Source: Methanosaeta sp. PtaB.Bin039
GTDB taxonomy: Archaea > Halobacteriota > Methanosarcinia > Methanotrichales > Methanotrichaceae
DNA length: 25,156 nucleotides
Reading direction: 5' to 3'
Assembly: GCA_002067795.1 (NCBI GenBank)
Contig: MVQI01000024.1
Span: 1 to 25,156, forward strand
Below the pieces are notes generated by a model. It made no database searches and was not told the origin of the DNA. It saw only the letters and a program-made list of their open reading frames with translations. The stretch's first letter is position 1. The number at the start of each line of letters is the position of its first letter. The translations under genes were made by a program, and so were the position numbers. Positions 1-20,104 of this stretch are shown piece by piece.

Positions 1-942
1 AGCGGCGGCGTTGCCGATGGCTGCCACGAGAGCTGTGGGGGTGGCCAGCACAATCACACATGGGCAGAAGACTATGAGCATGGTAATCGCCCTCATGACA
101 TCGCCGCTCCACAGCCAGAGCAGCCCGCCTGAGATCAGAGCCAAAGGCATGTAGATCTTGGCGTATCTGTTGAGAAGACGCTCAATTGGTGGTTTATGAG
201 ACTGCGCCTCCTCGATCAGGCTGCGGATATGGCCAAGAGCAGTATCGCCGCCGATCTTGCTTACCCGTATCTCAAGGGCGCCAACCTCACTAAGCGTTCC
301 GGCATAAACCTGATCTCCCGGCTTCTTCTCAACTGCCAGGCTCTCTCCAGTGATGGCCGCCTGGTTGACCGAGGCAGAGCCGGAGACGACCTCACCATCG
401 ACTGCAATTCTATCGCCCGACCGTACAAGTACAAGGTCGCCGACATCGACATCCTCCAGGCATACCACCAGATCGCCGCCGTTCCTGCGCACTGTAACCT
501 TGTCAGGCAGAAGGCCAGCCAAAGACACCAGGGATTGATTGGCTCGAGCCGCAACGAACTCCTCCAAGAGGCCGCCGATGAGCAGCAAGACCGCCACGAC
601 AGCTGCTGCAGAATATTCGCCAATGGCGATAGCCGCCATTGTGGCGATGGAAACGGGGATATCCGCCGTGAAGTCGCGCTCCCTGATGCCCCGGAGAGCT
701 GACATCCAGATGAAGGATGACCCAACCAAAGCCGCGATCAGATAGAGAACGCTTCCGCCTTCATGAGTCTCGCCATGATACAGTCCTCCAGGGTCGATGA
801 CGACTGCCAGGGTCAAGATCAGGCTGCTGACCACGGTGACGATGGTTCCAGGATCCAGCAGAAACTGGCGGTAACGGCTGAGCCAGTGTATCGTATTGAA
901 TGCAGCGGCGGACAAAGAGTCCTCCCTATCGTCGATGGACAT
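1..942 (-). CDS. Heavy-metal-translocating P-type (P1B) ATPase, N-terminal 314 codons; the gene continues past the left edge of the window
   Basis: This ORF is absent from the track because it is open at the window edge. My reverse-complement translation from the ATG at 942..940 stays in one frame down to base 1. It reads MSIDDREDSL...AAITGESLAVEKKPGDQVYAGT...MLIVFCPCVIVLATPTALVAAIGNAAA. It contains the TGES actuator motif and the CPC membrane metal-site motif typical of P1B ATPases. A GGAG lies about 14 nt upstream of the ATG. Confidence 0.85.
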   Translation of the reverse strand, partial: MSIDDREDSLSAAAFNTIHWLSRYRQFLLDPGTIVTVVSSLILTLAVVIDPGGLYHGETHEGGSVLYLIAALVGSSFIWMSALRGIRERDFTADIPVSIATMAAIAIGEYSAAAVVAVLLLIGGLLEEFVAARANQSLVSLAGLLPDKVTVRRNGGDLVVCLEDVDVGDLVLVRSGDRIAVDGEVVSGSASVNQAAITGESLAVEKKPGDQVYAGTLSEVGALEIRVSKIGGDTALGHIRSLIEEAQSHKPPIERLLNRYAKIYMPLALISGGLLWLWSGDVMRAITMLIVFCPCVIVLATPTALVAAIGNAAA

Positions 943-1132
943 AGTCACATCAATCTCCTACATCTCTGTGCACGGACATCGCCTGATAGCACATGCCATA
1001 GTGTAGGTAGCAATAAATCTTATGATATCTGCATCAAGTACAAATAAAACATGTAAAATAGTACATTATCATCTATGAATGTAGAGTTCAAATTGAAAAG
1101 GTTCTATCGGATAAGATAGTCTCGAACAACGA

Positions 1133-1984
1133 TCACTTCTCCCACCACATCTTCACTCTGGTCGACCATCCAGGCAGCACCAGCGCACCATCTTCCTCAC
1201 GCATGCCCTCCCGAAGGTATTCTCGCAATATCGACTTCTGCGCCTCTGTCTTCGCATCCGCCCGGAAAGCCATGTCCTGAGTGGCCTCATCAAGCGAGGG
1301 GTATCGTTGATCGTGCTCCAGCCTAAATGTCCTGATATGCGGATATATCCCCATCTGATAAAGCACGTTGTAGAGGACGTCGCTCTTCGGGCCAGGACGG
1401 TACTCTCGTCCATGCATGCTCTGCCAGATCCTCTCCCACTGCAGGTCCCAGGACGTCGGCCCGGCGAAATGATAGAGATAGACGTACCTCGAAGAGGCGT
1501 CAGTCATCTTCTGAATTGCCGCCCTGATATCCCTCATTCCAAGAGAGAAGGACGCGATCACCACATCGTATGGCGGATCAAGATCTCGCTCAACATCCAC
1601 ATCCTCCCATCGCTTCTTGACCACGGCGATGTTATGGACGCCGAACTCGGCCATCTTCTCTCTCATCACGCTGCACATGCCGTCGGCAGGCTCGACGGCT
1701 GTGACATGCGCCGCCTTCTGAGCAAAGGGGATTGCAAGCGTTCCAGGTCCCGCTCCGATGTCGAGGACCCGCGACTCTGCCGTGATATCCGTCTCCCAGA
1801 CTGTCTGGTCGATCCTGCTGCGCTCCCTTTGGCACATATCCCAGAAGCGCAGAGCGCTGTCCTTGCTCTCCCAGATGCGGGCACAATTTCGCCCGGGAGC
1901 CGATCCCCGGCTCCTATCAGTCCGGCTCTTCCAGACCTCATTCCAGTCGATTTCGTCACAAATATCGATCATGTCAATACCCAC
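1133..1984 (-). CDS. Class I SAM-dependent methyltransferase (paralogue of 3576..4412)
   Basis: The 283-aa ORF carries the motif I SAM-binding loop VLDIGAGPGTLAIP. It shares a scaffold with the 3576..4412 product: W-E-WK near the N-terminus, VLD-GAG-G-LAIP, DVVI-S-SLG, PGP, YN-L-MGIY and RY-SLDEA. The track start is a GTG at 1984. An ATG at 1972 (MIDICDEIDW...) sits about 26-30 nt downstream of a TATA-like CATAAATC, so it could be a leaderless start. Confidence 0.8.
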   Translation of the reverse strand: MGIDMIDICDEIDWNEVWKSRTDRSRGSAPGRNCARIWESKDSALRFWDMCQRERSRIDQTVWETDITAESRVLDIGAGPGTLAIPFAQKAAHVTAVEPADGMCSVMREKMAEFGVHNIAVVKKRWEDVDVERDLDPPYDVVIASFSLGMRDIRAAIQKMTDASSRYVYLYHFAGPTSWDLQWERIWQSMHGREYRPGPKSDVLYNVLYQMGIYPHIRTFRLEHDQRYPSLDEATQDMAFRADAKTEAQKSILREYLREGMREEDGALVLPGWSTRVKMWWEK

Positions 1985-2332
1985 AGGATTTGAAGCGGAT
2001 TTATGAGGTATCGGCAGCTGCCAAAAAAAGCCGCCTCAGGCGCCCAGCTCCTCGCAAGAATCAATCATCCGATGCGTCAGTGCCGGAGAGCCAATGCAAT
2101 GCCAGAATCATACCTCTCGACTCCGGTCTATCATTCGTCCAAACACCTCAAACAAGGGATGTAATCAATTCCTTATTTAAGAATATTGCCACAACCAGTG
2201 TTACTGGATCCGACGCTAACCATCGATTGATTCCCCCCACTCTGCATATCTCCGAAAGATTCGCTCGATGACCTGAGGCGATAATCATAGTAGGCGAAGG
2301 ACATCTTGTCGATACGTCTATTAACAAAAACT

Positions 2333-2340
2333 CTTAAATA
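2333..2340 (+). promoter_or_regulatory. Candidate archaeal TATA box for the binding-protein/ABC operon
   Basis: CTTAAATA is preceded by an A-rich stretch (AACAAAAA) in the AT-rich divergent intergenic region 1985..2432. It lies about 95 nt upstream of the ATG at 2433, which has its own GGTGAG Shine-Dalgarno site 8 nt upstream. Confidence 0.3.
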
Positions 2341-2432
2341 TTTCAATACTATTAACATCTAAATCGTAATTGATCATGAATCAGTGTGATGTGACGTATT
2401 GACAACCATCTGAGACAATTGGTGAGCTATAT

Positions 2433-3572
2433 ATGCATAAATCCTGTTTGCGAAATAAAACTCTGGCGGTAATATTGGTATGCTCTTTATTTGTTATTGG
2501 CATAACGGCAACGGCATCTTATCCTAAGGTCTTTACCGATACTCAAGGCCGGTATGTAATCCTGGATAAGCCCATCGAGAGGATAATCACCCGATCCCCG
2601 GACGAGGCCAGGATAGTCATAGCCCTGGGCTGCGGAGACAAGCTTGTTGCAGGAGAGCAGGCCACGAAATCCTGCCTGTGTCCCATGACATTCGGCAACA
2701 CCGAAGAAGGATGCAAGAGGTGTTTCGATGACATTATCGACGGACGCATGGCCTCCCTGCCAGAGATAAGCACCAGGTACGACATATATTTCGAGAAGAT
2801 AGCCCAGCTCAAGCCGGACCTGATCTTCTGCGGAAATCTGAAGGACGCAGAGGCCTTTGAGGACAAGATCGGCTGCCCAGTTGTTGTGCTGGGTGGACAG
2901 GGATGGAACTTAGGGGATGAGGGGTACTTCGAGAGCATACGCGTGGCTGGCCAGGCTCTGGATGCAGAAGATGAGGCAGATGATCTGATTGACTTTGTAA
3001 AGGGCAAGATAGACCTGGTAAAGACGAAAACGGATAACATGAAGCCCGAAGACAAGCCGCGTGTCTACTTTGCCTCACGCGGCGCAGGAGCGGGCTTTTA
3101 CGATCCGAAAGAGGGAAGGGATTTCACCAGAACCGAGCCCAAATACGACCCCCTGAAGATCGCCGGAGGCATCAACGTGGCCTCTGAGATCAATGGCTCG
3201 ACAGTCAATGTCGCCCTTGAGCAGATCATTGCCTGGAATCCGGACTTCGTATTCATATCGAACAGCGCAGCTAAAAACAGCACCGCATTGAATTTCATCA
3301 AGGGCAGTCCTGAGCTCTCCTCGGTCAATGCCATCAAGAACGGAGATGTGTACAACTGCTTCTATCCACACTGCCGCGGCACGCCTCCGGACAGAAACCT
3401 CATCAATATGATGTACATGGCCAAGCTGCTGCATCCCACAGAGTTCAGAGATCTGGACCTTGAGAAGGAGGGCAATGAGATATTCAAGGCCTTCTTGGGG
3501 GTTGACGGCGTCTTTTCCGAATACGCCGACTACCTCATCTGGCCCAGAGAGTACCTGGACAGCCTGAAGTAG
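2433..3572 (+). CDS. ABC transporter substrate-binding protein, FecB/BtuF-like (iron-chelate/corrinoid class), membrane-anchored or secreted
   Basis: The 379-aa ORF has an N-terminal hydrophobic anchor (LAVILVCSLFVIGITATA). Its layout is typical of class III periplasmic binding proteins (RIITRSPDEARIVIALGCGDKLVAG..., LKPDLIF, WNPDFVFIS). It is the first gene of a run that also holds a FecCD permease and a FecE-type ATPase. Confidence 0.85.
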   Translation: MHKSCLRNKTLAVILVCSLFVIGITATASYPKVFTDTQGRYVILDKPIERIITRSPDEARIVIALGCGDKLVAGEQATKSCLCPMTFGNTEEGCKRCFDDIIDGRMASLPEISTRYDIYFEKIAQLKPDLIFCGNLKDAEAFEDKIGCPVVVLGGQGWNLGDEGYFESIRVAGQALDAEDEADDLIDFVKGKIDLVKTKTDNMKPEDKPRVYFASRGAGAGFYDPKEGRDFTRTEPKYDPLKIAGGINVASEINGSTVNVALEQIIAWNPDFVFISNSAAKNSTALNFIKGSPELSSVNAIKNGDVYNCFYPHCRGTPPDRNLINMMYMAKLLHPTEFRDLDLEKEGNEIFKAFLGVDGVFSEYADYLIWPREYLDSLK

Positions 3573-3575
3573 TGA

Positions 3576-4412
3576 TTGATCATGCCAGGAATCGTAAACT
3601 GGGACGAGCTTTGGAAGGCCACACATTTCAGGGGCTTTCACCACCATGATCCAGACCTGATCTCCTACTGGGACAGAAAGGCAGAGCTGTTCAATAGAAG
3701 GGTCATGAGGCACAGGGAGAGGGCTGAAATCCAGGTGGCAAGTCTTGGGCTGCGTTCCTACGAGACCGTCCTTGATGTGGGTGCTGGAACCGGAAGGCTG
3801 GCGATCCCCATGTCCAAAGTGGCCAGTAGCGTTACAGCTCTCGACCAATCAGGAGGCATGCTGGCCTGCCTTAAGGAAAATATGCGCGCTGATGGGATAG
3901 AAAATATCCGGTGCATCCAGAAGAGCTGGCAGGATTTGGCGGTAGACGAGATAGAGCAGCATGACGTCGTCATATCCTCAAACTCCCTGGGTGTCTATGA
4001 ATTGAGAGAGGCGCTGGCCAAGATGGATTCGCTGGCCAAGAGCAGGGCTTACATATTCATCTTCACCGATCATAAGAGGGACGACGGTTTTTCGGATTTC
4101 TTAAGGAGAGATGTGGCGGTTAAGAATGCGCCCGGACCTGCGGATTATCTGGTGATCTACAATCTGCTCGCCGAGATGGGCATATACGCCGACATAGAGA
4201 TGGTTGACTGGCTGTACAAAGAGCGTTACTCCAGCCTCGACGAGGCAGCGTCCGAATGGATGCAGATGCATGACATCGCAGCCGATAAGGAGCCTGATCT
4301 GCGGGAATTCCTCTCTTTAAGGCTGGTGGGGGACGAGTCCGGAGTGTGCATGGTCCGCCACTACAAATCGGCCACGATCTCCTGGCGGAAAGGCAAGCTG
4401 GTTCGTGACTAG
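3576..4412 (+). CDS. Class I SAM-dependent methyltransferase (paralogue of 1133..1984), embedded in the ABC operon
   Basis: The 278-aa ORF carries the SAM motif I VLDVGAGTGRLAIP and the conserved blocks it shares with 1133..1984. It starts 4 nt after the binding-protein stop, at TTG 3576 or ATG 3582. Confidence 0.8.
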   Translation: MIMPGIVNWDELWKATHFRGFHHHDPDLISYWDRKAELFNRRVMRHRERAEIQVASLGLRSYETVLDVGAGTGRLAIPMSKVASSVTALDQSGGMLACLKENMRADGIENIRCIQKSWQDLAVDEIEQHDVVISSNSLGVYELREALAKMDSLAKSRAYIFIFTDHKRDDGFSDFLRRDVAVKNAPGPADYLVIYNLLAEMGIYADIEMVDWLYKERYSSLDEAASEWMQMHDIAADKEPDLREFLSLRLVGDESGVCMVRHYKSATISWRKGKLVRD

Positions 4413-4422
4413 GTGGGCGTGA

Positions 4423-5202
4423 ATGGTCTCCATAACCATTTTGGCCGGATCTGTCCTTTTGCTGGGTCTTTTGGCAGCATCGATAAGGGTGGTGAGGCAG
4501 TATGAACGGGCGGTCGTATTTCGTTTGGGAAAGCTGAAAGCCGAGAGAGGTCCTGGCCTCTTCCCACTCGTTCCGCTGGCGGATAATATGGTGCGGGTCG
4601 ACATGAGGGTGAGAGAGCTCGACGTCCCCAAGCAGACCGTGATCTCCAGAGACAATGTCACTCTTGAGGTGGACGCGGTCATATACTACAAGGTGACGAG
4701 CGCCTCGAAAGCCATTGTAGAGGTAGAGGACTTTGAGGCGGCCACGCTTCTGCTGGCCCAGACCACACTTCGTGATATCCTTGGACAAAACGAGCTGGAT
4801 ACTATACTATCAGACCGAGACGACCTCAACCAGAGGATCAAGGAGATATTGGATTTCACAACGGAGCCCTGGGGAATGCATGTGGTGATGGTGACAATGA
4901 GAGACGTCTCACTGCCCGAGAATATGCTGCGTGCCATCGCCCGCCAGGCGGAAGCAGAGCGCGAGAAAAGGGCACGCATAATACTGGCAGAAGGAGAGCT
5001 TCAGGCATCCAGGATGATGAACGAGGCTGCTGATATGTACGAGAACAAGCCCAGTGCTTTGAAGCTGCGTGAGTTTCAGACCTTAAATGAGATCGCCAAG
5101 GAGAAGAACCTCATCGTGGTATCGACTGGAGAGAGAGACGGCCATTGGGCATCAGACCTCCCATGTCTCATGGGTCTGGCCAGGGCGGCTGCTGATAAAT
5201 GA
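4423..5202 (+). CDS. SPFH/band-7 (stomatin/prohibitin-like) membrane protein
   Basis: The 259-aa ORF has an N-terminal TM segment followed by the SPFH core (VRQYERAVVFRLGKL, VISRDNVTLEVDAVIYYKV, TTLRDILGQNELDTILSDRD). A coiled-coil tail follows (AIARQAEAEREKRARIILAEGELQAS). Its stop overlaps the permease start in an ATGA. Confidence 0.85.
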   Translation: MVSITILAGSVLLLGLLAASIRVVRQYERAVVFRLGKLKAERGPGLFPLVPLADNMVRVDMRVRELDVPKQTVISRDNVTLEVDAVIYYKVTSASKAIVEVEDFEAATLLLAQTTLRDILGQNELDTILSDRDDLNQRIKEILDFTTEPWGMHVVMVTMRDVSLPENMLRAIARQAEAEREKRARIILAEGELQASRMMNEAADMYENKPSALKLREFQTLNEIAKEKNLIVVSTGERDGHWASDLPCLMGLARAAADK

Positions 5203-6329
5203 TGAGCGGAAAGGCGCTATTCTTCCGGGCCAAGACACGTGCAGAAATGTCCCAATCCAGGAGAGCTGGCAAGAGAAGCGCTATGCAGACGGCTCACGAT
5301 AGATTCAAGCTCGTCAGGATCTTCTTCGTGCTGGGCATCGCCGCCCTGCTGGTCTTTTTAACAGGCTTAATCATAACGCTTGGACCACTGGAGATTTCCG
5401 TGGCCGATGCCTATTCTGCTCTTCTGGCCCGCTTTTTGCCAGATCACTTCCAGTCGGAGGCGCTTACATCACGAGTCGTCTGGAATATCCGGTTTCCCCG
5501 CATACTGGGCGGGATGATGGCTGGATTTGGACTTGGGATATGCGGATGCGTCATGCAGGCAGTCCTCAAAAATCCGCTGGCCAGCCCCTTTACGCTGGGA
5601 ATCACCGCCGGCGCCCAGTTTGGCATATCAATGGCAGCCGTCATTGGATTTTCGGTTCTTGGCGGGCCTTATTTCATAATCGGCAATGCCTTCCTCTGCG
5701 CCCTGCTCTGCTCATTCTTCATCATAGGCCTGGCTGCCATCAAGGGCGCAACCTCTGAGAACCTGGTCTTAGCAGGCATAGCTGTCAACTACTTCTTCTC
5801 AGCCATCAGCCAGCTTCTCAAGTATTTCGCCAGCGATGAGCAGCTTCGACTCATGACCAACTGGGGAATGGGCGACCTGGCCGCCTTCTCCTGGGCGAAC
5901 TCCCAGCTGCTCCTTGCGGTATTCGTCATATGCGTTCCGCTGCTCATGTCCAAATGCTGGGACCTGAACATCATGACCGCCGGCGACGATACCGCCAAGA
6001 GCATCGGGGTAAATGCAGAGAATACCCGACTGTTCATCATGGCAACAAGCAGCCTGCTTGTGGCAGTTATCGTCTGCTTCATGGGAATTATCGCCTTCGT
6101 TGGCCTTGTGGCTCCTCATATGGCACGCATGGTGATCGGCGGAGATCACAGGTTTCTGATACCGGCATCCGGAGTGCTGGGCGCACTTGTCCTCATGTCG
6201 GCTGATGCCGTGGGAATGAATCTGATGGCACCTACCATCATCCCCACAGGGATCATGACATCCATTGTGGGCGTCCCATTCTTCATGTACCTCATGATGA
6301 AGGGAAAGAGAAAGGAGTTCTGGACATGA
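5199..6329 (+). CDS. FecCD/BtuC-family ABC transporter permease
   Basis: The 376-aa polytopic membrane ORF matches FecCD-family sequence character (RFPRILGGMMAGFGLGICGCVMQAVLKNPLASPFTLGITAGA..., IIPTGIMTSIVGVPFFMYLM). Its start overlaps the upstream stop. Internal ATGs at 5247 and 5283 are alternative starts. Confidence 0.9.
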   Translation: MMSGKALFFRAKTRAEMSQSRRAGKRSAMQTAHDRFKLVRIFFVLGIAALLVFLTGLIITLGPLEISVADAYSALLARFLPDHFQSEALTSRVVWNIRFPRILGGMMAGFGLGICGCVMQAVLKNPLASPFTLGITAGAQFGISMAAVIGFSVLGGPYFIIGNAFLCALLCSFFIIGLAAIKGATSENLVLAGIAVNYFFSAISQLLKYFASDEQLRLMTNWGMGDLAAFSWANSQLLLAVFVICVPLLMSKCWDLNIMTAGDDTAKSIGVNAENTRLFIMATSSLLVAVIVCFMGIIAFVGLVAPHMARMVIGGDHRFLIPASGVLGALVLMSADAVGMNLMAPTIIPTGIMTSIVGVPFFMYLMMKGKRKEFWT

Positions 6330-7114
6330 TGATCAAGCTGCAGGCCAAAGAGATAGTCTTCGGCTACGACAGCAATCCCGTTCTGGACAGCGTGAGCTTC
6401 GAGATAGCCCCCTCAAAGCTTGTGACAATCGTCGGGCCCAATGGTTCTGGCAAATCGACCCTGATCAAGTGCATAAACAAAATAGTGTCTCCGCAGGGAG
6501 GAAGCATCCTGATCGACCGAAGAGAGGTAGCGAAGATGACCAGGATGGAGGTAGCCAGATATCTCTCCTATGTCCCGCAAAGCTCGGTGCGCATCTTTCC
6601 CACCAATGTCTTCGACACGATCCTGATGGGCAGAAGGCCCCATATCGGTTGGCTGGGCAGCGAGCGGGATGAAGAGAAGGTCTGGGATGTCTTGCAGCTA
6701 TTGAATATCGAGAGGCTTGCCATGAACAACTTCAGCGAGCTTTCAGGCGGCCAGCAGCAGAAGGTGCTCATTGCCAGAGCGCTTGTTCAGGAAGCGGAGG
6801 TGATGCTTCTTGACGAGCCCACCAGCAACCTGGATATCTGGCACCAGCTGGACGTCATGAACATAATTCGGGACGTCGTCAAGAAGAAGGAGATCACTGC
6901 AATTATGGCCTTGCACGACCTCAACCTGGCGTCATACTACTCGGATCGCATCATAATGATGAAGAGGGGAAAGATCGTGGCAGTCGGCGATCCGCACTCA
7001 GTGATCACAGAGGAGAACATAGCTTCCGTATATCGGGTGCAAGCGGCAGTGCGAAAGCTATCCGATAGGCCGATGATCATGCCACTTCGGCAGATACGTG
7101 GATCCAAGGCCTAA
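6326..7114 (+). CDS. ABC transporter ATP-binding protein (FecE/BtuD-like)
   Basis: The 262-aa ORF has Walker A GPNGSGKST, the signature LSGGQQQKVLIARAL, Walker B MLLDEPTSNLD and an H-loop (ALHD). Its start overlaps the permease stop in an ATGA. Confidence 0.9.
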   Translation: MMIKLQAKEIVFGYDSNPVLDSVSFEIAPSKLVTIVGPNGSGKSTLIKCINKIVSPQGGSILIDRREVAKMTRMEVARYLSYVPQSSVRIFPTNVFDTILMGRRPHIGWLGSERDEEKVWDVLQLLNIERLAMNNFSELSGGQQQKVLIARALVQEAEVMLLDEPTSNLDIWHQLDVMNIIRDVVKKKEITAIMALHDLNLASYYSDRIIMMKRGKIVAVGDPHSVITEENIASVYRVQAAVRKLSDRPMIMPLRQIRGSKA

Positions 7115-7205
7115 AGATCAATCGCAAGCTACTAGCCCGCGGCCGTCCAGCAAAAAAAGTTGCCAGGAAGCACCAATCTGGCACTGTCCCACTGACCCAA
7201 TTTTT

Positions 7206-8306
7206 CTACATCACGCCTGCTACCTTGAGCGGATGTACGCCTGCGCTCTGGAGCAAAGCCAGCCTCTCTGAGTCCACTTCGAACTCCTTTATGACCGAAA
7301 CAACGAGCTGTGGCTGGTTCCAGTACTCCATGAGCCGCACATCCTCGACCAGCTTGGCAGCCCACGACGGCCCCTTGAAATCGGCTGATCCGTCCAGCTC
7401 CCTGGCCCTTGTCCAGTTGAACCCAAGGACCAACGCATCACCCTGCTTGGCAGTCTGGTTCCAGCGAATGTAGATGCCTGCCACATCGCTCTGGTTGTAC
7501 CTGGCTCTCAGAGCGCTCTTCTCCGCGTCGGAGAGGGCCATAACGAACATGCTGCTCTTGCCTGGTGTTGCATCCCATCGCATCTGCAATAAGTCGTCCT
7601 TGCACCACTGGGGACAGGCGATCACTCTATAGCTCTGTGCAGAGATATCCTCGATGGGCAGCTTGCCTTCCACGAACTTGGCGAGCATATAGCCGCTTGT
7701 CACTCCTGGGCAGAGATGATCGTGAAACGCAGTGGCCTGCAGGAAGTCAAACGAGGACCCAGGCTGCGCCCAGACATTGGACATGCCCACAAGGGTGAAC
7801 TCGTTTCCACCAAAGGCTCCCTGGAAGGTGGCGTTGCCCTCATCGGTGTGGTTCAGCATGTAGTCCAGGTCCACGTTAGCCCTCGTGATCCTGGTGAATG
7901 CCTGGTCGGCAGGAAGAGAGGCGAGCTTTTGCGCAGACATGCCCACAGCCCGGTTGTCTGCCTGAAGGAAGATCGCCTCCCCCGTCTCCTTATCGAAGAA
8001 GTAGAACCACAGCGGCTTCCAGTATGGCCGCAGCACCTGAAGCAGGTTGCCGTCGCCGACGCTGCACCCGCTGGCCTCTGTCAGGCCTTTTAAGGCAGCC
8101 TGGGTGGTCTGGCCCTCCACGATGGCATGACCGGCATTTGTGAGTGCCAGTATGTCTTTGTCACCGCTCTGAAATCCCAGTTGAGCCATGGCCTCCTTTG
8201 CAGCCTTTGATCCAATTTCCTCCATAGCAGAGCCCTGCGCATGGACTGCGCATGGCATCGTGGCCAGCAGCAGCGCCAAAGCCACCAACCCAATCGCTTT
8301 AAACAT
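7206..8306 (-). CDS. Secreted FmdE/FwdE-family protein
   Basis: The ORF contains the FmdE hallmark FHDHLCPGVTSGYML. An upstream segment (ILALTNAGHA...ASGCSVGDGNLLQV) also looks FmdE-like. The signal peptide MFKAIGLVALALLLATMPCAVHA begins at ATG 8306, which has a GAGGT 8 nt upstream. The track ORF extends to 8330. Confidence 0.75.
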   Translation of the reverse strand: MFKAIGLVALALLLATMPCAVHAQGSAMEEIGSKAAKEAMAQLGFQSGDKDILALTNAGHAIVEGQTTQAALKGLTEASGCSVGDGNLLQVLRPYWKPLWFYFFDKETGEAIFLQADNRAVGMSAQKLASLPADQAFTRITRANVDLDYMLNHTDEGNATFQGAFGGNEFTLVGMSNVWAQPGSSFDFLQATAFHDHLCPGVTSGYMLAKFVEGKLPIEDISAQSYRVIACPQWCKDDLLQMRWDATPGKSSMFVMALSDAEKSALRARYNQSDVAGIYIRWNQTAKQGDALVLGFNWTRARELDGSADFKGPSWAAKLVEDVRLMEYWNQPQLVVSVIKEFEVDSERLALLQSAGVHPLKVAGVM

Positions 8307-8663
8307 CTTGATACCTCTCATACAAGCCAAAATCTCTTCGTCTATGACAGATGGCTTAACCGACCTCGTGATATCGGTTCAGTGCCAATATCCGGGCCTT
8401 GGCCAATACGATAATTGAAGCTGCGCCCAACATTTATGAATGTTTCTATATTTAGTAGCACAAAGAATTAATATACGAGAATTGTCTGTGACTGGAGCAG
8501 ATGAAACAGCTGCCAAGATCACATCTGAAATAAGAAATAGCATAGCTGCAATTCGATTCAGATATGTGTCTTCGTTTTCGCCGGGCTGCAAAATCGCCTG
8601 GCGAAAAAAAAGAGACAGAAGATCCCTGCTGTTGACTGGGGAAATGGGAGATGCAAGAGATCG

Positions 8664-9926
8664 ATGAGACTTGACCCCCCGATAGAGAGCATGCTTGTGG
8701 CATCCAACAGCTACGCCAATAAGGTGAGGCGCTTCAGCTCCAATGCCAGATTGTATCTGGCCTTCCATCTCCTGACCACCGTAAACGCAGGGATCTACGG
8801 GGTTATATTCAACCTCTATATCCTGAGCCTTGGTTTTCGTGAGGACTTCTTAGGTCTGATATTATCCATCTCATCCTTATCGGTCGGACTTTTCGCGATG
8901 CCATCGGCCTTCGTATGCGATCGTCTTGGAAGAAAGAGGACGCTGCTGCTCTCATCGGTTCTCCTTGCAGTATCGCTCCTGTTTCTCTACAACACAACGT
9001 CTCAGGTGCTGCTAGTGGCCTTCAGCATAGCGTTTGGGATGGCCTCAAGCTTGAGCCTGATAACAGGATCGATATTTCTGCTGGAGAATTCCTCAGCTGA
9101 GGAGAGAATGTACCTCTTCTCTATGTCCTCTCTGATCTACACCATCTCTGCATTATCCGGAAATATGATCGGAGGCTTTTTGCCGGGCATTCTTTCGGAT
9201 ATGTTCACACTGGATGCCGACAGTATCGTTGCATACAGAATTACCCTCTATGTTTCATTGACAGCGATAATAATCTCGATGCTGCCGCTGGCATATATGA
9301 GAGAGGAGCGCCGCATGGAAATGGCGATCTCAAGCGGCCAGCTTCTGGCCTATAAATCGGTGTTTGGGTCCAAGAACGCCAGAAGGATGGTCCTATTCTT
9401 TTGCCTTTTCGGCATAGGATGGGGCATGTCGCTTCCCTACTTCAACGTGTATCTCGATTCTTTCTTGGGTGCGAGTGCAAGCCAAATCGGCATGATCTTT
9501 TCTGCGTCTCAGGTGTTCATGGTGGTCGGATACTTCCTGGTGCCCATCTTCGCAGAGAGGGTCGGAAAGATAAGGCTGGCCTCCTCTGTTCAGATACTGT
9601 CCATACCGTTCCTGCTTATGTTCACCTTTGCCTCCAACCTGCTTGTGGCAGCAACTGGATTTGTGATGCGCTACATGCTGATGAACATGGCAAATCCGGT
9701 ATTGAACAGCTTCAAGCTGGAGATCGTCCGTCCAAACGAGAGATCGATGATCAACAGCATCACCTGGATGGCCTGCCATACCTTTGTGGGAGTTGGGACC
9801 TATGCGGGAGGAATGATGATGGCTAATGGATGGAACAGCATGCCGTTTCTGGTGACAGGCGTATTTTATGCGGTCTCCGCCGCATATTATTATATATGCT
9901 TCAATAAGCTTGAAGAGACGGCATGA
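8664..9926 (+). CDS. MFS-family transporter
   Basis: The 420-aa ORF has about 12 hydrophobic segments and the MFS loop motif DRLGRKRTLL between predicted TM2 and TM3. ATG 8691 is an alternative start. Confidence 0.8.
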   Translation: MRLDPPIESMLVASNSYANKVRRFSSNARLYLAFHLLTTVNAGIYGVIFNLYILSLGFREDFLGLILSISSLSVGLFAMPSAFVCDRLGRKRTLLLSSVLLAVSLLFLYNTTSQVLLVAFSIAFGMASSLSLITGSIFLLENSSAEERMYLFSMSSLIYTISALSGNMIGGFLPGILSDMFTLDADSIVAYRITLYVSLTAIIISMLPLAYMREERRMEMAISSGQLLAYKSVFGSKNARRMVLFFCLFGIGWGMSLPYFNVYLDSFLGASASQIGMIFSASQVFMVVGYFLVPIFAERVGKIRLASSVQILSIPFLLMFTFASNLLVAATGFVMRYMLMNMANPVLNSFKLEIVRPNERSMINSITWMACHTFVGVGTYAGGMMMANGWNSMPFLVTGVFYAVSAAYYYICFNKLEETA

Positions 9927-10217
9927 TAGCATGCACCCGAGTCAATGGAAATGCGATCAACAAGGCTGGGACCGAAAAACAAATGCATCCTGCCAGTGAC
10001 AAACCTATCACTTTGAACCACCCGCTTCTGTGTCCCCGGCTTTTCCGTCTCTCCCTTCCTGCTCCTTATCATCTGGTCTGCCGGCATCCTCCGCGTGGCC
10101 GTACCTCTCTGGAAGCTCCTCAGGAAGATCAGCGCCGCACACAGCTCTTCACAGCTGTATGACTAATCGCCACCAGAATTAAACCGTATCGATTCGTCCG
10201 GCCTGCTACCACAAGGG

Positions 10218-10247: not shown

Positions 10248-11204
10248 ATGCCAAACCTCAACGTGGTGGTCCTGGGTCCAGCCGGCTACTCCAAGGAGCT
10301 GGGAAAGACGGGAACCACTAGCGATATGACCTTTTACAATCTGAAAAGGGGCGAGGATACCGTCACCTTCATAGAGCCCACCCGCTACCCGGAACGTCTG
10401 GCACCCCTCTTTTACGCAGCAACTCTTGCCAGGATGGCGGTTTTGGTGGTGGAGAAGATCGATCCGGCATTCGGAGAGTGCGTCCTGATGCTCGACTGCC
10501 TGGGCATATCCTCCGGCTATCTGATCCTCCGCAACTTCATCCAGAAGGAGCAGGTCTTGCCGCTCATCAAGGGAACGGTCGCAGAGGGCTATGAGCTGCT
10601 GGCAGACGATCCCATTGTCCTGCGTGAGCGCCTGCTGGAAGAGGCGACAAAGGAGAATCCGGCCTTAGACGCTCCCGTTGGCAGCATGCCTGTGGACCAC
10701 TTCTTCAGCGTCCGCGGCGTCGGCACGGTTGTCCTTGGTGCTGTCACCCGGGGCAGCTTAAAGAAGCACGACTCGTTGCGAATCCTGCCGGGCGAAAAGA
10801 CCGCCCAGATCCGCTCGATTCAGAAGCACGACCAGGATTTCGATGCGGCTGGTCAGGGTGAGAGGACCGGACTTGCGCTGAAGGGAATAGAGGTGGACGA
10901 CCTTGACCGCGGCGTTGTGCTCACCACTGATCCGTCCATCAAGGTCAGCAGCTCTGTGCAGGCAAAAGCGCGGCTGGTAAAATACTGGCCATCGCCGCTG
11001 AAGGAAGGCATGGTGCTGCACCTGGGCCACTGGATGCAGTTCGTGCCTGCCAGGGTCGAGTCGGCCAGCGGAGACGACTGGCACAGGCCACTTCTTCAGC
11101 TATCCCTCGACAAGCCACTCGTGCATCCGCCAGGCGCCTCTGGAGTGCTCACCTATCCGGAAGGAGGCAAGCTTCGAGTCGTGGGGACGGTAGAGCTGCC
11201 CTGA
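10248..11204 (+). CDS. EF-Tu/SelB-like protein with a degenerate G domain and an intact EF-Tu domain 2
   Basis: The 318-aa ORF has a middle region typical of the EF-Tu domain 2 beta-barrel (FSVRGVGTVVLGAVTRGSLKKHDSLRILPGEKTAQIRSIQKHDQDFDAAGQGERTGLALKGIEVDDLDRG). The N-terminal ~130 aa align positionally with a G domain. The P-loop reads GPAGYSKELGK instead of GHVDHGK(S/T). I can find no DxxG or NKxD motif. Confidence 0.7.
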   Translation: MPNLNVVVLGPAGYSKELGKTGTTSDMTFYNLKRGEDTVTFIEPTRYPERLAPLFYAATLARMAVLVVEKIDPAFGECVLMLDCLGISSGYLILRNFIQKEQVLPLIKGTVAEGYELLADDPIVLRERLLEEATKENPALDAPVGSMPVDHFFSVRGVGTVVLGAVTRGSLKKHDSLRILPGEKTAQIRSIQKHDQDFDAAGQGERTGLALKGIEVDDLDRGVVLTTDPSIKVSSSVQAKARLVKYWPSPLKEGMVLHLGHWMQFVPARVESASGDDWHRPLLQLSLDKPLVHPPGASGVLTYPEGGKLRVVGTVELP

Positions 11205-17991: not shown

Positions 17992-18651
17992 TTACCAAAC
18001 CTTCAGGTCTATCCCCTCAATCCTCACCATCCGACCCTCGGAGTGCACAACCACTCCGGAATGCACCTTCTGCATCATGCAGTGCTCAGGCAGGAAACGG
18101 ACGGTCTGGCCCACAGACGGGATACTGCCACGGACCACCAGGCCTTCAAATGCTGCCACCATGCAGACGCCAAGGTCGTTGTATTCGGCCTGCTGTCCCA
18201 GCAGGTGCAGCGGGCCTACCATATGAACGGTCAGAATGCCGTGCTCCCATCCAAGCACCCGGGCGAAATGGGTCACCGGACAACCAAGTGGGCGATAGCG
18301 GATAAGGTCGCCTGGGCAAAATGTGAGACTTCGATCGAATGGAAATAGGTCCTCACGACAGGAGGGCTCGCCAGGCAGCGGCCCCAATGAGAAGTCAGCC
18401 AAAAGGCCGTCTATAACTCCCCGAACAGTCTCCTCCGACGCGGCCCTATTGCCGGAGAGGACTTCTCGGATGCCTTCTGCATGTCCTGCAAAGCGCTCCT
18501 GCCCAAGATAGGGACACTGCCCCGTATCGCCGCCACCGCTTGCCAGCAGCTGAGCGAAATTTTGGCAGCTCCTCTGGCCGCACTCTCCGCAGTTGAATCC
18601 GGGAAGCAGCCGCTCCACCTGTTCTGATAGGTTCAAGGCCTTGGTCCTCAC
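17992..18651 (-). CDS. Fe-S cluster domain protein (RnfB/CdhE-N-terminal-type 4Fe-4S motif) with an uncharacterised C-terminal domain
   Basis: The 219-aa ORF has the N-terminal motif C-x2-C-x4-C-x16-C ([31 protein letters not shown]). I do not recognise the C-terminal ~140 aa; it appears beta-rich. The GTG start overlaps the upstream stop in a GTGA. Confidence 0.7.
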
Positions 18652-19346
18652 TCACCGGAGTATTCCATAAATCCGTCCATATGCCTGAGAACACCCCGGT
18701 GATATCGCTTGGAGACTCGCAGCTCGCCGCTGCAAAGAGTGCAGACGGCCAGCGGCGGATTGTGGCGGAGCATCATATTCTCTGCGGCAGGCGGAAGCGC
18801 CCGGATTATCTCTGCCAGATCGCTCCCGCCCTTCCCGGTAAGTCCATTGGCCTCAACTATCCTGCAATGCGGATTGGCCTCGAGCACCCTCTCTCTGAAA
18901 ACCTCGCGCTCGGCCTGCGATACCAGATCGCATTTGGTCGTGACCACCACGTCTGCGGTGGTCAGAAGCGGTCCAACCTTGAGCGGGGTGTTGGGTCCGG
19001 TCGTAACATCGATCACGCAGACGGCCAGGCAGTGGTCGGGATAGGGGGCGCACCTGAGACACAGCCCGGCAGTCTCGTTGAGCAGGACATCTGCATCCTG
19101 CTTCTTTGCCCATTCGAGCATCTCGTCCACGTTATATATGGAGAAGTGATCGGGACACATGTCCCTGGAGAGCGCCACATGTACCGGAATTCCCAGGCGG
19201 CCGATGCGCTTGTCGTCCTCAGTCCACAGGCAGTCCACCTTTACAACTGCTGGCCGGCTGCCGGATCCCTCAAGACACCTGGCCGCATGCATCAGGACCG
19301 ATGTCTTGCCTGATCCGGGGGTGCCAGCTATCACCACAAGCTTCAC
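18648..19346 (-). CDS. G3E-family P-loop GTPase (HypB/UreG/CobW-like), Cys-rich
   Basis: The 232-aa ORF has Walker [10 protein letters not shown], a switch region [12 protein letters not shown] (compare the ExxG-plus-Cys metal sites of HypB and COG0523) and the guanine-specificity motif TKCD. It also has a C-terminal CTLC. The GTG start overlaps the upstream stop in a GTGA. Confidence 0.75.
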
Positions 19347-20104
19347 AGGGCCGCCTCCGCGGCGCTGACGGTCTCACCCCTGCGAATGGCCTCCCGCAGG
19401 TTGATCAGCCACCGGTCCACACGGCTCAAGCTGTTACAGACCTTTTGCTCCTCCTCGCTTGTCTGGATTACCCGGACCATATTTCCCTTCTTCATGACCA
19501 CACGCCGAGAGGTCATAAGGGCCAGGACCGGATCATGGGTGACCACCACCACGATCTTGCCCTCGCCTGCCAGGAGCTTGAGAGCCTCTTGCTTCTTGAT
19601 CCCGGCATTTTCTATCTCGTCGATGAGGACAATTGGAGAGTCGCTGATAACCGCTATATCGGCTGTCATCAGGGCCCGCGACTGGCCTCCGCTCAGAGCG
19701 GTCAGGTGGTGCTCCGGGTGTATGGGCTCGCCGGTCAGGGTGTTGGCGAGATCTATCACCTTTGCGATCAGGTTCTCCTCCCTACCACGGCTCTTTGCAT
19801 GCATTGCCAGGAAGTCCGAGACCGTCATATCTGCCAGGAAATGCATATTCTGGGAGAGCTGAGCCACAGGCTTTCTGCGCGGATCTGCCCTGACCTCTGC
19901 ATCTGGAGGCTGGCCATCGATGAGCACCTGGCGGCGGGATTCCGTATCTCTTTGGGCAAACTGCTCCAGGTCGGATATCAGCGTGCTCTTCCCTGACCCG
20001 GTTGGCCCAACGATTCCGACGATCTCGCCGCTATCGATATGTAGTGTCTCTATGTGATCCGCACATCCATCTTTGTCCACGCCACCCAGAATTGTAAGCC
20101 TCAA
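19343..20104 (-). CDS. Atypical soluble ABC-type ATPase with no adjacent permease
   Basis: The 253-aa ORF has Walker [10 protein letters not shown], the signature LSGGQSRAL, Walker B and D-loop [12 protein letters not shown] (not the transporter-type DEPTxxLD) and an H-loop VTHD. It has a ~40-aa C-terminal extension. The TTG start lies 6 nt after the cysteate synthase stop, with an AGGAG inside that gene's 3' end. Confidence 0.8.

Follow-up and report, generated by a model that had tools for sequence, protein, structure and literature searches.

What does a FecCD/BtuC-type importer take up when its operon encloses a SAM-dependent methyltransferase and a stomatin and is flanked by a second methyltransferase and a secreted FmdE-family protein? 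We addressed this question in the window, by which we denote the whole analysed stretch of 25,156 nucleotides, and in related archaeal and bacterial loci. The locus had originally been read as an import-and-modify module. We retain the tie of methyltransferase and FmdE to the transporter, which gene linkage and a gene fusion bear out, and depart from that reading on the cargo, which was taken to be an iron chelate, a haem or a corrinoid, and on tetrapyrrole methylation. We propose with moderate confidence that the system serves to acquire Mo/W and combines a type II (FecCD/BtuC-like) importer with metal handlers of the FmdE family and a SAM-dependent processing step. The cargo is most likely Mo/W, not iron chelates or tetrapyrroles, because bacterial relatives of the operon are under Moco/Tuco riboswitch control.

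Gene content and junctions of the operon

All seven genes of the original prediction coincide, exactly or within a few bases, with open reading frames whose domain searches match the labels it gave (Table 1), including the FmdE-like gene that converges on the operon end with its FHDHLCPG motif and signal-like segment. The gene order and the ATGA overlaps were likewise found as described, the latter from ORF coordinates at 5199–5202 (stomatin stop, FecCD start) and 6326–6329 (FecCD stop, ATPase start). The start of MT2, however, had been placed at 3576, and ATG 3582, 9 nt past the SBP stop, is likelier than this TTG because homologues begin MPGI... With a 10-nt gap ahead of the stomatin gene, all operon junctions are tight (≤10 nt or overlapping) and, as judged from the sequence, leave no intergenic space for internal promoters or terminators. 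The promoters of both transcription units would lie in the divergent MT1/SBP intergenic region, which contains an AT-rich stretch near 2320–2380. This region matched no Rfam family and contained no Moco aptamer, and a sigma-70 scan, whose consensus is not applicable to an archaeon, gave no enrichment there. The reported absence of NfeD was borne out by a Pfam search of the small unassigned ORFs, which returned neither NfeD nor any other domain, and NfeD was also not found in the Pfam-annotated homologous loci. The window additionally carries an MFS gene to which related loci have no counterpart.

Table 1. Positions of the operon genes and their flanking features in the window.
Feature	Position	Strand	Remarks
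MT1, class I SAM-dependent methyltransferase-like	1133–1984	-	283 aa; Pfam Methyltransf_25 and others
MT1/SBP intergenic region, 448 bp	1985–2432		Divergent; promoters of both units presumed here
SBP, class III (Peripla_BP_2)	2433–3572	+	Pfam E 6e-31; N-terminal signal/anchor
MT2, operon-embedded class I SAM-dependent methyltransferase-like	3582–4412	+	276 aa from ATG 3582; ORF opens TTG 3576
Stomatin (SPFH/Band_7)	4423–5202	+	Pfam Band_7 E 9e-39; N-terminal membrane segment
FecCD/BtuC-type permease, type II ABC importer	5199–6329	+	Pfam FecCD E 1e-83
Importer ABC ATPase	6326–7114	+	Pfam ABC_tran E 1.8e-33
Secreted FmdE-family protein	7206–8306	-	366 aa from ATG 8306; ORF opens TTG 8330; PF02663 E 2.7e-16

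Conserved linkage and the methyltransferase family

We found the order SBP–MT–stomatin–FecCD–ATPase again in 11 other, independent archaeal loci (L001–L004, L008, L081, L083, L086, L087, L093 and L094, the duplicates L081/L082 and L083/L084 each being taken as one) at methyltransferase identities down to 45%, and a twelfth locus, L085, has the same order lacking the stomatin only. The operon of Methanothrix is a conserved, uncharacterised system. In the neighbourhood comparison proposed with the original prediction, linkage of both the methyltransferase and the FmdE-like gene to the transporter was kept across Methanotrichales and Methanomicrobiales, and that of the methyltransferase also in Bathyarchaeota, Chloroflexi and Desulfatiglandales. 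This conservation supports a functional tie of the methyltransferases and the FmdE-like protein to the transporter.

The divergent gene MT1, described as a second methyltransferase with the same conserved blocks, is indeed a paralogue of MT2: the two are 29–31% identical and have invariant, family-specific residues outside the SAM-binding core in common. Orthologues of MT1 in the Methanothrix loci L001 and L081 show 70–72% identity, the methyltransferase closing the FmdE–SBP–FecCD–ATPase–MT–CbiA operon of Methanospirillum (L088) is 44% identical to it, and MT1-like genes come after the ATPase gene in L085 and L086. Archaeal and bacterial methyltransferases, the latter embedded in SBP–FecCD–ATPase operons, form one family over their full length (HHalign E 1.3e-44) at about 25% identity. 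A homologous radical SAM protein recurs with the methyltransferase, together with an uncharacterised protein of about 400 aa. The SAM-binding motifs are intact, and the fold gives no clue to the substrate. An assignment as CbiT or CpaM was rejected, since the likeness does not extend beyond the SAM-binding core and the NCBIfam scores, 40 against a cut-off of 78 and 46 against 180, respectively, are far too low. We know of no established role of a methyltransferase in Mo/W uptake.

FmdE-family protein, transporter components and stomatin

The FmdE-like protein of the window carries the invariant motifs H-x-H-x-C-P-G and W-C-K-D/E-D behind the N-terminal signal-like segment MFKAIGLVALALLLATMPCAVHA. 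Its gene lies downstream and convergent in the window and L093, upstream and divergent in L001, L002 and L081, and a secreted FmdE-like protein is encoded by the first gene of the Methanospirillum-type operons FmdE–SBP–FecCD–ATPase–MT(–CbiA) in L088 and L089. Adjacency of methyltransferase and FmdE was also seen in L011 and L013, and in L089 an ATPase orthologue (44% identity to the window ATPase) is fused to FmdE and a zinc-ribbon domain. Independent evidence also links FmdE with Mo/W: proteins in which it is fused to PF00994, a molybdopterin-binding domain, are known and the majority of FmdE genes adjoin metal transporters (PMC2954224), while by locus tag the fmdE gene of M. maripaludis (MMP_RS02690) adjoins the mod cluster MMP_RS02670–02685, which includes a DUF364 gene.

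The binding protein belongs to a clade with a specific four-Cys insertion (C-L-C-P...C-x2-C) and the motifs FYDPKEGRDFTRT and FYPxCRGxPPDR, which 8 orthologues share and which SBPs of other methyltransferase-linked systems lack. Its sequence matches in the PDB were 2etv (5.6e-26), 4hn9, 4ovk and MolA HI_1472 (3.8e-9), the match to BtuF being marginal and partial only. MolA, which binds Mo/W oxyanions, is also the best match among characterised SBPs to the bacterial SBPs under riboswitch control (8e-17, 1e-13). Across methyltransferase-linked systems the SBPs are 19–27% identical, no closer than unrelated paralogues, and are not orthologous across lineages; the cargo could therefore differ between lineages. 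L085 and L086 contain arrays of 6–7 divergent SBPs. For the permease, the NCBIfam matches BtuC, FhuB, FecC and FecD all fell under their equivalog cut-offs (BtuC 211 against 461).

The stomatin matches solved stomatins at E 1.5e-60 and the Pyrococcus PH stomatin at 1.4e-48. It is the best-conserved member of the operon (70–88% identity, where the methyltransferase reaches 45–63% and the SBP 31–79%) and was found only in the Methanothrix-type branch, being absent from the Methanomicrobiales, Bathyarchaeota and bacterial versions.

Evidence for a probable Mo/W cargo

Directly upstream of 11 of the 22 assessable bacterial operons, we found RF01055 Moco/Tuco aptamers (47–78 bits; gathering score 36), while no riboswitch was detected in the other half. 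At four further bacterial loci (L128, L133, L130 and L145) the aptamer lies directly ahead of the methyltransferase gene. Both P3-containing and P3-lacking forms are present, the latter corresponding to the Tuco type (PMC2408646). An Rfam scan returned no cobalamin riboswitch in 30 related bacterial loci of the methyltransferase family, transporter-linked ones included. Genes for XdhC, a Moco chaperone family, directly follow the methyltransferase gene in L092, L097, L098, L102, L103 and L116, and in L016 the methyltransferase ends an operon of a CoxMSL-type molybdenum hydroxylase, XdhC and CoxG.

No Moco/Tuco aptamer was found in the window or any archaeal locus, as is expected for archaea, and no Moco-biosynthesis or Mo-enzyme genes were recognisable in the window or the archaeal loci examined. 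Since the riboswitch and XdhC evidence is wholly bacterial, the archaeal cargo assignment runs through the methyltransferase family and FmdE only. An archaeal MT–rSAM–SBP–MT–FmdE cluster (L011) contains DUF364, a documented partner of Mo/W transporters (PMC2954201, 10.1101/2024.03.05.583561), and expression of tungsten/molybdenum formylmethanofuran dehydrogenases is documented for Methanothrix, as are extra, scattered fwdE genes (PMC3349665).

We propose a model in which a Mo or W species would be captured outside the cell by the cysteine-rich, clade-specific SBP and the secreted FmdE-like protein, which has a His2Cys2-type site, and would be imported by permease and ATPase. MT2 and MT1, members of one dedicated SAM-dependent family, may then take this species or its ligand as substrate, a step that would serve metal entry into molybdopterin-cofactor synthesis. 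In relatives, a cytoplasmic FmdE, a CbiA/ParA-like NTPase, a flavin reductase, radical SAM, DUF364 or XdhC would join in. The stomatin, which is translationally coupled to the permease, may plausibly form an oligomeric scaffold in the membrane that surrounds the transporter or lies next to it.

Alternative explanations

Could the same transporter architecture carry a Ni/Co species or another thiophilic metal complex in archaea? In that case the His/Cys proteins of the FmdE family and a CbiA/CooC-like NTPase would serve as metallochaperones for Ni/Co enzymes such as CODH/ACS, MCR-F430 or corrinoid proteins. The need of Methanothrix for Ni and Co is unusually high, and the system is accompanied by CbiM/CbiN or CbiQ/CbiM in L089 and L006, Nik/Opp-like SBP_bac_5 and permease (BPD_transp) genes in L081 and L093, CobN in L083 and CbiA/ParA-family NTPases in L081, L087, L088, L093 and L094. 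The nickel-binding chains 4ino and 4ls3 are among the PDB matches to the bacterial SBPs, and the lack of SBP orthology between lineages also fits. We nevertheless consider this unlikely: the adjoining Ni/Co genes form separate or divergent transcription units that differ by locus, methyltransferase family and FmdE each have several independent links to Mo/W and none to Ni/Co, and neither NikR-type nor cobalamin regulatory elements turned up. A low probability is also assigned to a pathway in which the methyltransferases make, with radical SAM, DUF364 and other partners, a SAM-derived metallophore instead of modifying the cargo; it would be exported via an adjacent ABC-2 or MFS protein and re-imported as metal complex through the FecCD system, and the metal could again be Mo/W. 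Chelates are the classical cargo of FecCD-type importers, and the SBP arrays of L085 and L086 suggest several related chelates as cargo. In L030 the system is flanked by ExbB/TonB genes together with a decarboxylase/ATP-grasp/GNAT set, pairs of ABC-2 exporters lie next to it in L001, L002, L087, L088, L093 and L094, MFS genes lie near it in the window, L022, L087 and L091, and the homologous radical SAM and ~400-aa proteins recur with the methyltransferase. Moreover, VioH, a class I methyltransferase-like protein, and the sole DUF364 enzyme characterised so far cyclise SAM derivatives instead of methylating (PMC12930334). However, the window has no radical SAM, DUF364 or operon-conserved exporter, its MFS gene being without counterpart, the SAM-binding motifs are intact, and a single methyltransferase-like enzyme as the only constant partner is thin for a biosynthetic pathway.

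The original suggestion, that an iron chelate, a haem or a corrinoid is imported and that this chelate or tetrapyrrole is then methylated in the cytoplasm, appears improbable. Permease and ATPase do resemble BtuCD, FecCDE, FhuBC and haem systems at the domain level, CpaM and CbiT are the top sub-threshold matches of the methyltransferase, and some related loci contain Flavin_Reduct, PNPOx, CobN, Oxidored_nitro or extra O-methyltransferase genes. Yet every NCBIfam equivalog score is far under its cut-off, the CbiT/CpaM likeness is core-only, the SBP–BtuF match is marginal, and the scan of 30 related bacterial loci found no cobalamin riboswitch, whereas Moco/Tuco aptamers are frequent. Regulation and neighbours point instead to Mo/W-cofactor metabolism. 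That methyltransferase, stomatin and FmdE are mere neighbours of an ordinary chelate importer with no function in common is already disfavoured and very improbable. While gene order around the core shuffles among Methanothrix genomes, with FmdE varying in side and the stomatin confined to one branch, the methyltransferase gene sits between transporter genes at gaps of ≤10 nt, its linkage spans two domains of life despite ~25% identity and that of FmdE two archaeal orders, an ATPase–FmdE fusion exists, and the bacterial riboswitch governs transporter and methyltransferase jointly.

Comparison with known systems

The Mo/W acquisition module that we favour resembles several known systems in part. 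With FmdE/FwdE of formylmethanofuran dehydrogenase operons (PF02663; structures 2gvi, 2glz, 3d00) the window protein has the HxHxCPG and Cys motifs in common (Pfam 60 bits, cut-off 22.9), but it has a signal peptide for secretion, is roughly twice as large, carries additional N-terminal sequence, lacks the C-terminal zinc ribbon and is encoded outside any fmd/fwd operon. Similarly, the stomatin is a genuine one, in which the SPFH domain comes after an N-terminal membrane segment as in the stomatin–NfeD (STOPP) operons, e.g. Pyrococcus PH1511/PH1510, but is translationally coupled to an ABC permease in place of an NfeD partner; a survey of prokaryotic SPFH evolution makes no mention of transporters or permeases (PMC2636767). 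Bacterial homologues of the operon have bona fide aptamers of the Moco/Tuco riboswitch regulon (RF01055) directly upstream; as described in Regulski et al. 2008, this regulon comprises mod/tup/wtp-type transporters, Moco biosynthesis genes and Moco/Tuco enzymes; in a word search of that paper, "methyltransferase" and "periplasmic" were absent and "siderophore" occurred in the reference list only. MolBC-A (HI1470/HI1471/HI1472), the type II molybdate/tungstate importer of Haemophilus influenzae, which has a Mo/W connection (PMC4031551), likewise combines a class III Peripla_BP_2 SBP with a FecCD permease and an ABC ATPase. Between MolA and the window SBP, for which a Mo/W cargo is predicted, the relationship is a distant one, and the latter carries the clade-specific four-Cys insertion. 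To our knowledge, neither a methyltransferase nor a stomatin is embedded in the MolBC-A operon, and no FmdE partner accompanies it. BtuCD-F, FecBCDE and FhuBCD share the domain architecture and the translationally coupled permease–ATPase gene pair, whereas the window proteins score under every NCBIfam equivalog cut-off and no cobalamin riboswitch turned up in the relatives (30 loci); these systems exclude methyltransferase, stomatin and FmdE, while that of the window includes all three.

Results

The Peripla_BP_2 substrate-binding protein (SBP), the FecCD permease and the ABC ATPase of the window are encoded together and contiguously and thus constitute a type II (FecCD/BtuC-type) ABC importer. 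Every gene which the original prediction had listed for positions 1133-8330 is present, with domain assignments matching its labels (see table). Within the operon, stop and start codons overlap at 5199-5202 and 6326-6329 and the other gaps measure 9-10 nt, so that the intergenic space is nil. Homologues of MT2, the operon-embedded methyltransferase, begin at a position matching ATG 3582, which is probably the true start and corrects the coordinate proposed earlier. MT1, its divergently transcribed paralogue, shares only 29-31% identity with MT2, yet family-specific residues are common to both.

Features of the window with coordinates, strand and assignment
Feature	Position	Strand	Assignment or match
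SBP	2433-3572	+	Peripla_BP_2, Pfam E 6e-31
MT2	3576/3582-4412	+	class I SAM methyltransferase-like protein
Stomatin	4423-5202	+	
FecCD permease	5199-6329	+	Pfam E 1e-83
ABC ATPase	6326-7114	+	Pfam E 1.8e-33
MT1	1133-1984	-	divergent paralogous methyltransferase
FmdE-family protein	7206-8306	-	secreted, convergent
MFS gene	8664-9926	+	MFS_1
318-aa protein	10248-11204	+	EF-Tu domain 2 (sole match)
PF04060 protein	17992-18651	-	'putative Fe-S cluster' protein
GTPase	18648-19346	-	CobW/HypB/UreG-type
ATPase of three-gene run	19343-20104	-	ABC_tran
Left-edge ORF	196-702	+	
Left-edge ORF	261-725	-	

Protein matches assign the window to Methanothrix. No Rfam family and no tRNA was found within it, and a promoter and terminator scan gave no enrichment over shuffled sequences, its consensus being bacterial and uninformative for an archaeal host. 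For the MFS gene just past the FmdE-like gene, none of the related loci offers an equivalent, and it is therefore not counted in the system; the MFS genes in the vicinity of the system in L022, L087 and L091 are not homologous at the level tested. Further downstream, the 318-aa protein displays sub-threshold SelB/EF-1alpha similarity over residues ~130-260, with no Pfam GTPase domain detected, and the three-gene run at 17992-20104, by position unrelated to the operon, may be a metallocentre-maturation set. At the left edge, ~1.1 kb (1-1132) with long overlapping ORFs gave no Pfam match and does not resemble the genes on either side of MT1 in its Methanothrix relatives; the stretch may not code for protein or may represent a decayed gene.

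For the conserved-order search, a genome scan seeded with the methyltransferase (MT) family was combined with look-ups of annotated contigs. The order SBP-MT-stomatin-FecCD-ATPase is identical in L001-L004, L008, L081, L083, L086, L087, L093 and L094, with identities as low as 45% for the MT and about 31% for the SBP, and L085 displays the same order minus the stomatin. The neighbourhood comparison proposed with the original prediction thus turned out in its favour, adjacency of the MT to SBP and FecCD genes being conserved across related loci. In Methanothrix loci, the gene set around the core is constant and its order shuffled, comprising one to two secreted FmdE-like genes, an MT1-type gene, a CbiA/ParA-like NTPase, a flavin reductase and an ABC-2 exporter pair. 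Of this set, the compact version in the window has MT1 and a single FmdE-like gene only. Our literature search returned nothing specific describing a stomatin with an ABC importer, or an MT with FecCD and FmdE. The system is regarded as a conserved, uncharacterised and accessory-rich variant of the type II ABC importer, which is real and not ordinary.

Tandem arrays of mutually divergent Peripla_BP_2 genes precede the MT in L085 (seven, 1059-9989) and L086 (six, 423-8430), where apparently many binding proteins serve one permease. After these arrays and MT-FecCD-ATPase follow MT1-like genes, a Methyltransf_2 O-methyltransferase, PNPOx, cupin and Oxidored_nitro (nitrogenase-like) genes.

The identity of the stomatin could be confirmed, and it is conserved better than any other protein of the set, with 70-88% identity across loci. 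As noted in the original prediction, there is no NfeD partner; none was found among the window ORFs, including small ORFs without any other domain, nor in those homologous loci that carry annotation. The stomatin, whose coupling to the permease is tight, represents an addition specific to its clade.

The MT belongs to the class I SAM-dependent methyltransferase superfamily, showing the Rossmann-like fold, GxGxG and the acidic residue after strand 2, and its structure model is of high confidence and generic fold. Assignment as CpaM (NCBIfam score 46, cut-off 180) or as CbiT (40, cut-off 78) was rejected, both matches covering only the SAM-binding core at residues ~50-139; alignment with CbiT from the PDB is likewise limited to residues 51-125. 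No paper was found for PDB 9hrj and related entries. Bacterial MTs form a large family with 1,443 matches, and HHalign aligns them with the archaeal ones with a probability of 100% and E 1.3e-44 over 271 columns; judged by this sequence comparison, both are one family over their full length. P0344, a 381-aa bacterial member on a 1.6 kb contig, is annotated with an additional PF13531 (SBP_bac_11), which we take to be the ModA/TupA-type oxyanion-binding fold; either a genuine fusion or an error of gene calling may account for it.

In six loci, the gene immediately after the MT encodes XdhC, the molybdenum cofactor (Moco) chaperone family, and in Thermogemmatispora (L016) the MT is the last gene of a CoxMSL-type molybdenum hydroxylase-XdhC-CoxG operon. 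In the Ktedonobacteria loci L014, L016 and L021 a CoxG (SRPBCC)-MT pair is conserved (CoxG 74-79%, MT 53-59% identity) apart from any transporter; it is joined to the CoxMSL-XdhC operon in L016 only. The genes flanking the MT-family members in L005 and L010, which are likewise not linked to a transporter, were uninformative. A radical SAM protein (~335 aa) and a ~400-aa protein without Pfam domain recur with MT and transporter in L022 (4806-6955), L030 (6793-8936), L102, L113, L126 and L164, the two proteins being 45% and 41% identical, respectively, between Anaerolineales and Desulfatiglandales. In several more loci, the radical SAM gene adjoins the MT without this partner.

The secreted window protein belongs to the FmdE family (PF02663), scoring above the Pfam gathering cut-off and having the alpha+beta core fold and the His/Cys motif, and its AlphaFold model (pLDDT 86.6) has no structural match other than the three solved FmdE structures. 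Across the FmdE-like family, HxHxCPG and one further Cys are invariant, and the secreted branch accounts for 238 matches, mostly from Methanothrix and also from Methanomicrobiales. In L088 (Methanospirillum stamsii) and L089, operons of the order FmdE-SBP-FecCD-ATPase-MT(-CbiA-like) begin with its gene; the L089 ATPase forms a fusion with a cytoplasmic FmdE and a zinc-ribbon domain, and the L088 MT is the orthologue of MT1 (44% identity versus 28% to MT2). In the Methanoregulaceae loci L011 and L013, a cytoplasmic FmdE gene follows immediately after the MT gene. Given these conserved operons and the ATPase-FmdE fusion, the suspected linkage of MT and FmdE genes to the transporter is borne out. 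Archaeal type IV pilin (Pilin_N) gene clusters adjoin the FmdE/MT systems of Methanospirillum (L088, 7767-8911) and Methanoregulaceae (L011, 6214-9265).

In L022 (Anaerolineales), two tandem Moco-motif aptamers lie directly upstream of the genes SBP-FecCD-ATPase...SBP-FecCD-MT-ATPase. With a covariance model derived from the first five aptamers, the census was extended to three further contigs and 80 metagenome loci, yielding 16 matches in 12 re-scanned loci, all confirmed by the curated Rfam model at 47-75 bits (gathering score 36). Of the 22 transporter-MT operons with an available 5' region, half (11) have an aptamer directly upstream, as a tandem pair in three of these 11 (L022, L103 and L106). 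In four further loci, L128, L133, L130 and L145, the aptamer sits immediately before the MT gene. Both P3-lacking and P3-containing aptamers were found, forms which Regulski et al. associated with the tungsten cofactor (Tuco) and with Moco, respectively (PMC2408646). The Moco/Tuco aptamer RF01055 was detected in neither the window nor the archaeal loci, so that membership in this regulon applies to the bacterial homologues.

Additional Moco-motif aptamers lie near MT operons before other genes in L090 (14149-14281, -), L096 (13038-13169, -) and L155 (9099-9222, +), that of L090 preceding a small ORF and then an aldehyde dehydrogenase-family gene. This pattern points to a local grouping of the Moco/Tuco regulon around MT operons. 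In L090 (7351-8931), L092 (6580-8166) and L022 (320-2896), the riboswitch-controlled bacterial SBPs are extended N-terminally by ~200 aa, with a weak, sub-threshold resemblance to the molybdopterin-binding domain PF00174 in two of the three.

Discussion

The original prediction had named an iron chelate, haem or a corrinoid as cargo, which our data do not favour. Every NCBIfam score for a BtuFCD, FecBCDE, FhuBCD or haem equivalog stays below its cut-off (BtuC 211/461, FecC 176/396, FecD 162/406, haem ATPase 230/261, FecE 215/375; best match of the window SBP 45/325), and a cobalamin riboswitch was found by Rfam in none of 30 related loci, with Moco/Tuco riboswitches present in the bacterial relatives instead. 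Orthology of the SBPs does not lead to the cargo, since those of MT-linked systems are 19-27% identical, the same as unrelated paralogues, and the four-Cys insertion and other SBP motifs are specific to the Methanothrix-type clade.

We propose, with about even confidence, that the system serves molybdenum or tungsten acquisition, with FmdE proteins as metal handlers and with the cargo or its ligand as the target of a dedicated SAM enzyme family. MolA, the binding protein of a molybdate/tungstate importer, gives the bacterial SBPs their best match among functionally characterised PDB entries (8e-17 and 1e-13) and is also matched by the window SBP (3.8e-9). Most FmdE genes adjoin metal-transporter genes, only 13 of 208 family members sit in fmd/fwd operons, and fusions of FmdE with the molybdopterin-binding domain PF00994 are among the published architectures (PMC2954224). 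In M. maripaludis, the locus tag of fmdE is next to that of a modABC-DUF364 cluster, which is cofit with nifH; DUF364 also lies inside a Methanoregulaceae cluster MT-DUF364-radical SAM-SBP-MT...MT-FmdE, and its published context is transport of Fe, tungstate, vanadium and molybdate (PMC2954201, 10.1101/2024.03.05.583561). Methanothrix does require these metals: Fwd/Fmd occurs in all three of its sequenced species, of which M. thermophila has the tungsten type only, and scattered extra fwdE genes are found on their chromosomes (PMC3349665).

Support for Mo/W from riboswitches and XdhC comes from bacterial loci only. CbiMNQ, Nik-like or CobN genes lie in some archaeal neighbourhoods, for which reason we keep Ni or Co as a cargo of the archaeal branch, albeit an improbable one. 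Equally unlikely in our view, but retained on account of its neighbours, is a metallophore system, in which the ligand would be synthesised by the SAM enzymes instead of being processed by them. Here, the radical SAM and ~400-aa proteins recur with the MT, the sole characterised DUF364 enzyme is a SAM-derivative cyclase (PMC12930334), and the flanking genes on the Desulfatiglandales contig L030 include ExbB/TonB and a metallophore-like biosynthetic set.

We give a similarly small probability to an importer of pre-formed or complexed Mo/W species usable by anaerobes only, with SAM-dependent processing of sulfur ligands. The cargo may then be a labile Mo/W cofactor or molybdopterin, a form of cofactor salvage by analogy with B12 uptake under B12 riboswitch control, or a thiomolybdate or thiotungstate of sulfidic habitats. 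The SAM enzyme would S-methylate, for example, dithiolene or sulfido groups, whereupon the metal would be handed over or released. Hints in this direction are a BtuCD-like importer controlled by a cofactor-sensing RNA, XdhC co-operonic with the MT, the conserved four-Cys insertion of the archaeal SBP, the occurrence of the system solely in strict anaerobes from methanogenic or sulfidic environments, and the weak, sub-threshold resemblance to PF00174 (E 2.6e-4 and 9.5e-4) within the extended N-terminus of the bacterial SBPs. We know of no prokaryotic Moco importer.

If Mo/W acquisition is indeed the function, the system represents a widespread, uncharacterised route of metal uptake, the Moco/Tuco riboswitch regulon gains an MT-bearing FecCD-type importer, the long-unexplained FmdE family gains a concrete role as metal handler on both sides of the transporter, and genetic coupling between a stomatin and an ABC importer has a naturally occurring example. 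Many annotations as 'iron complex' or 'Fe3+-siderophore ABC transporter' in anaerobes may then misname the metal. Mo/W supply in sulfidic habitats, where oxyanions convert to thio-forms, matters for Methanothrix, a globally dominant acetoclastic methanogen, as well as for Anaerolineae, Bathyarchaeota and Methanomicrobiales as its anaerobic partners.

Compared with known arrangements, the window differs from the stomatin-NfeD operon in having a stomatin without NfeD, and from the formylmethanofuran dehydrogenase operon, where catalytic subunit genes stand beside FmdE, in encoding no fmd/fwd subunit. The closest known system is MolBC-A, the type II molybdate/tungstate importer of H. influenzae, to which the likeness lies at the sequence level of its binding protein MolA.
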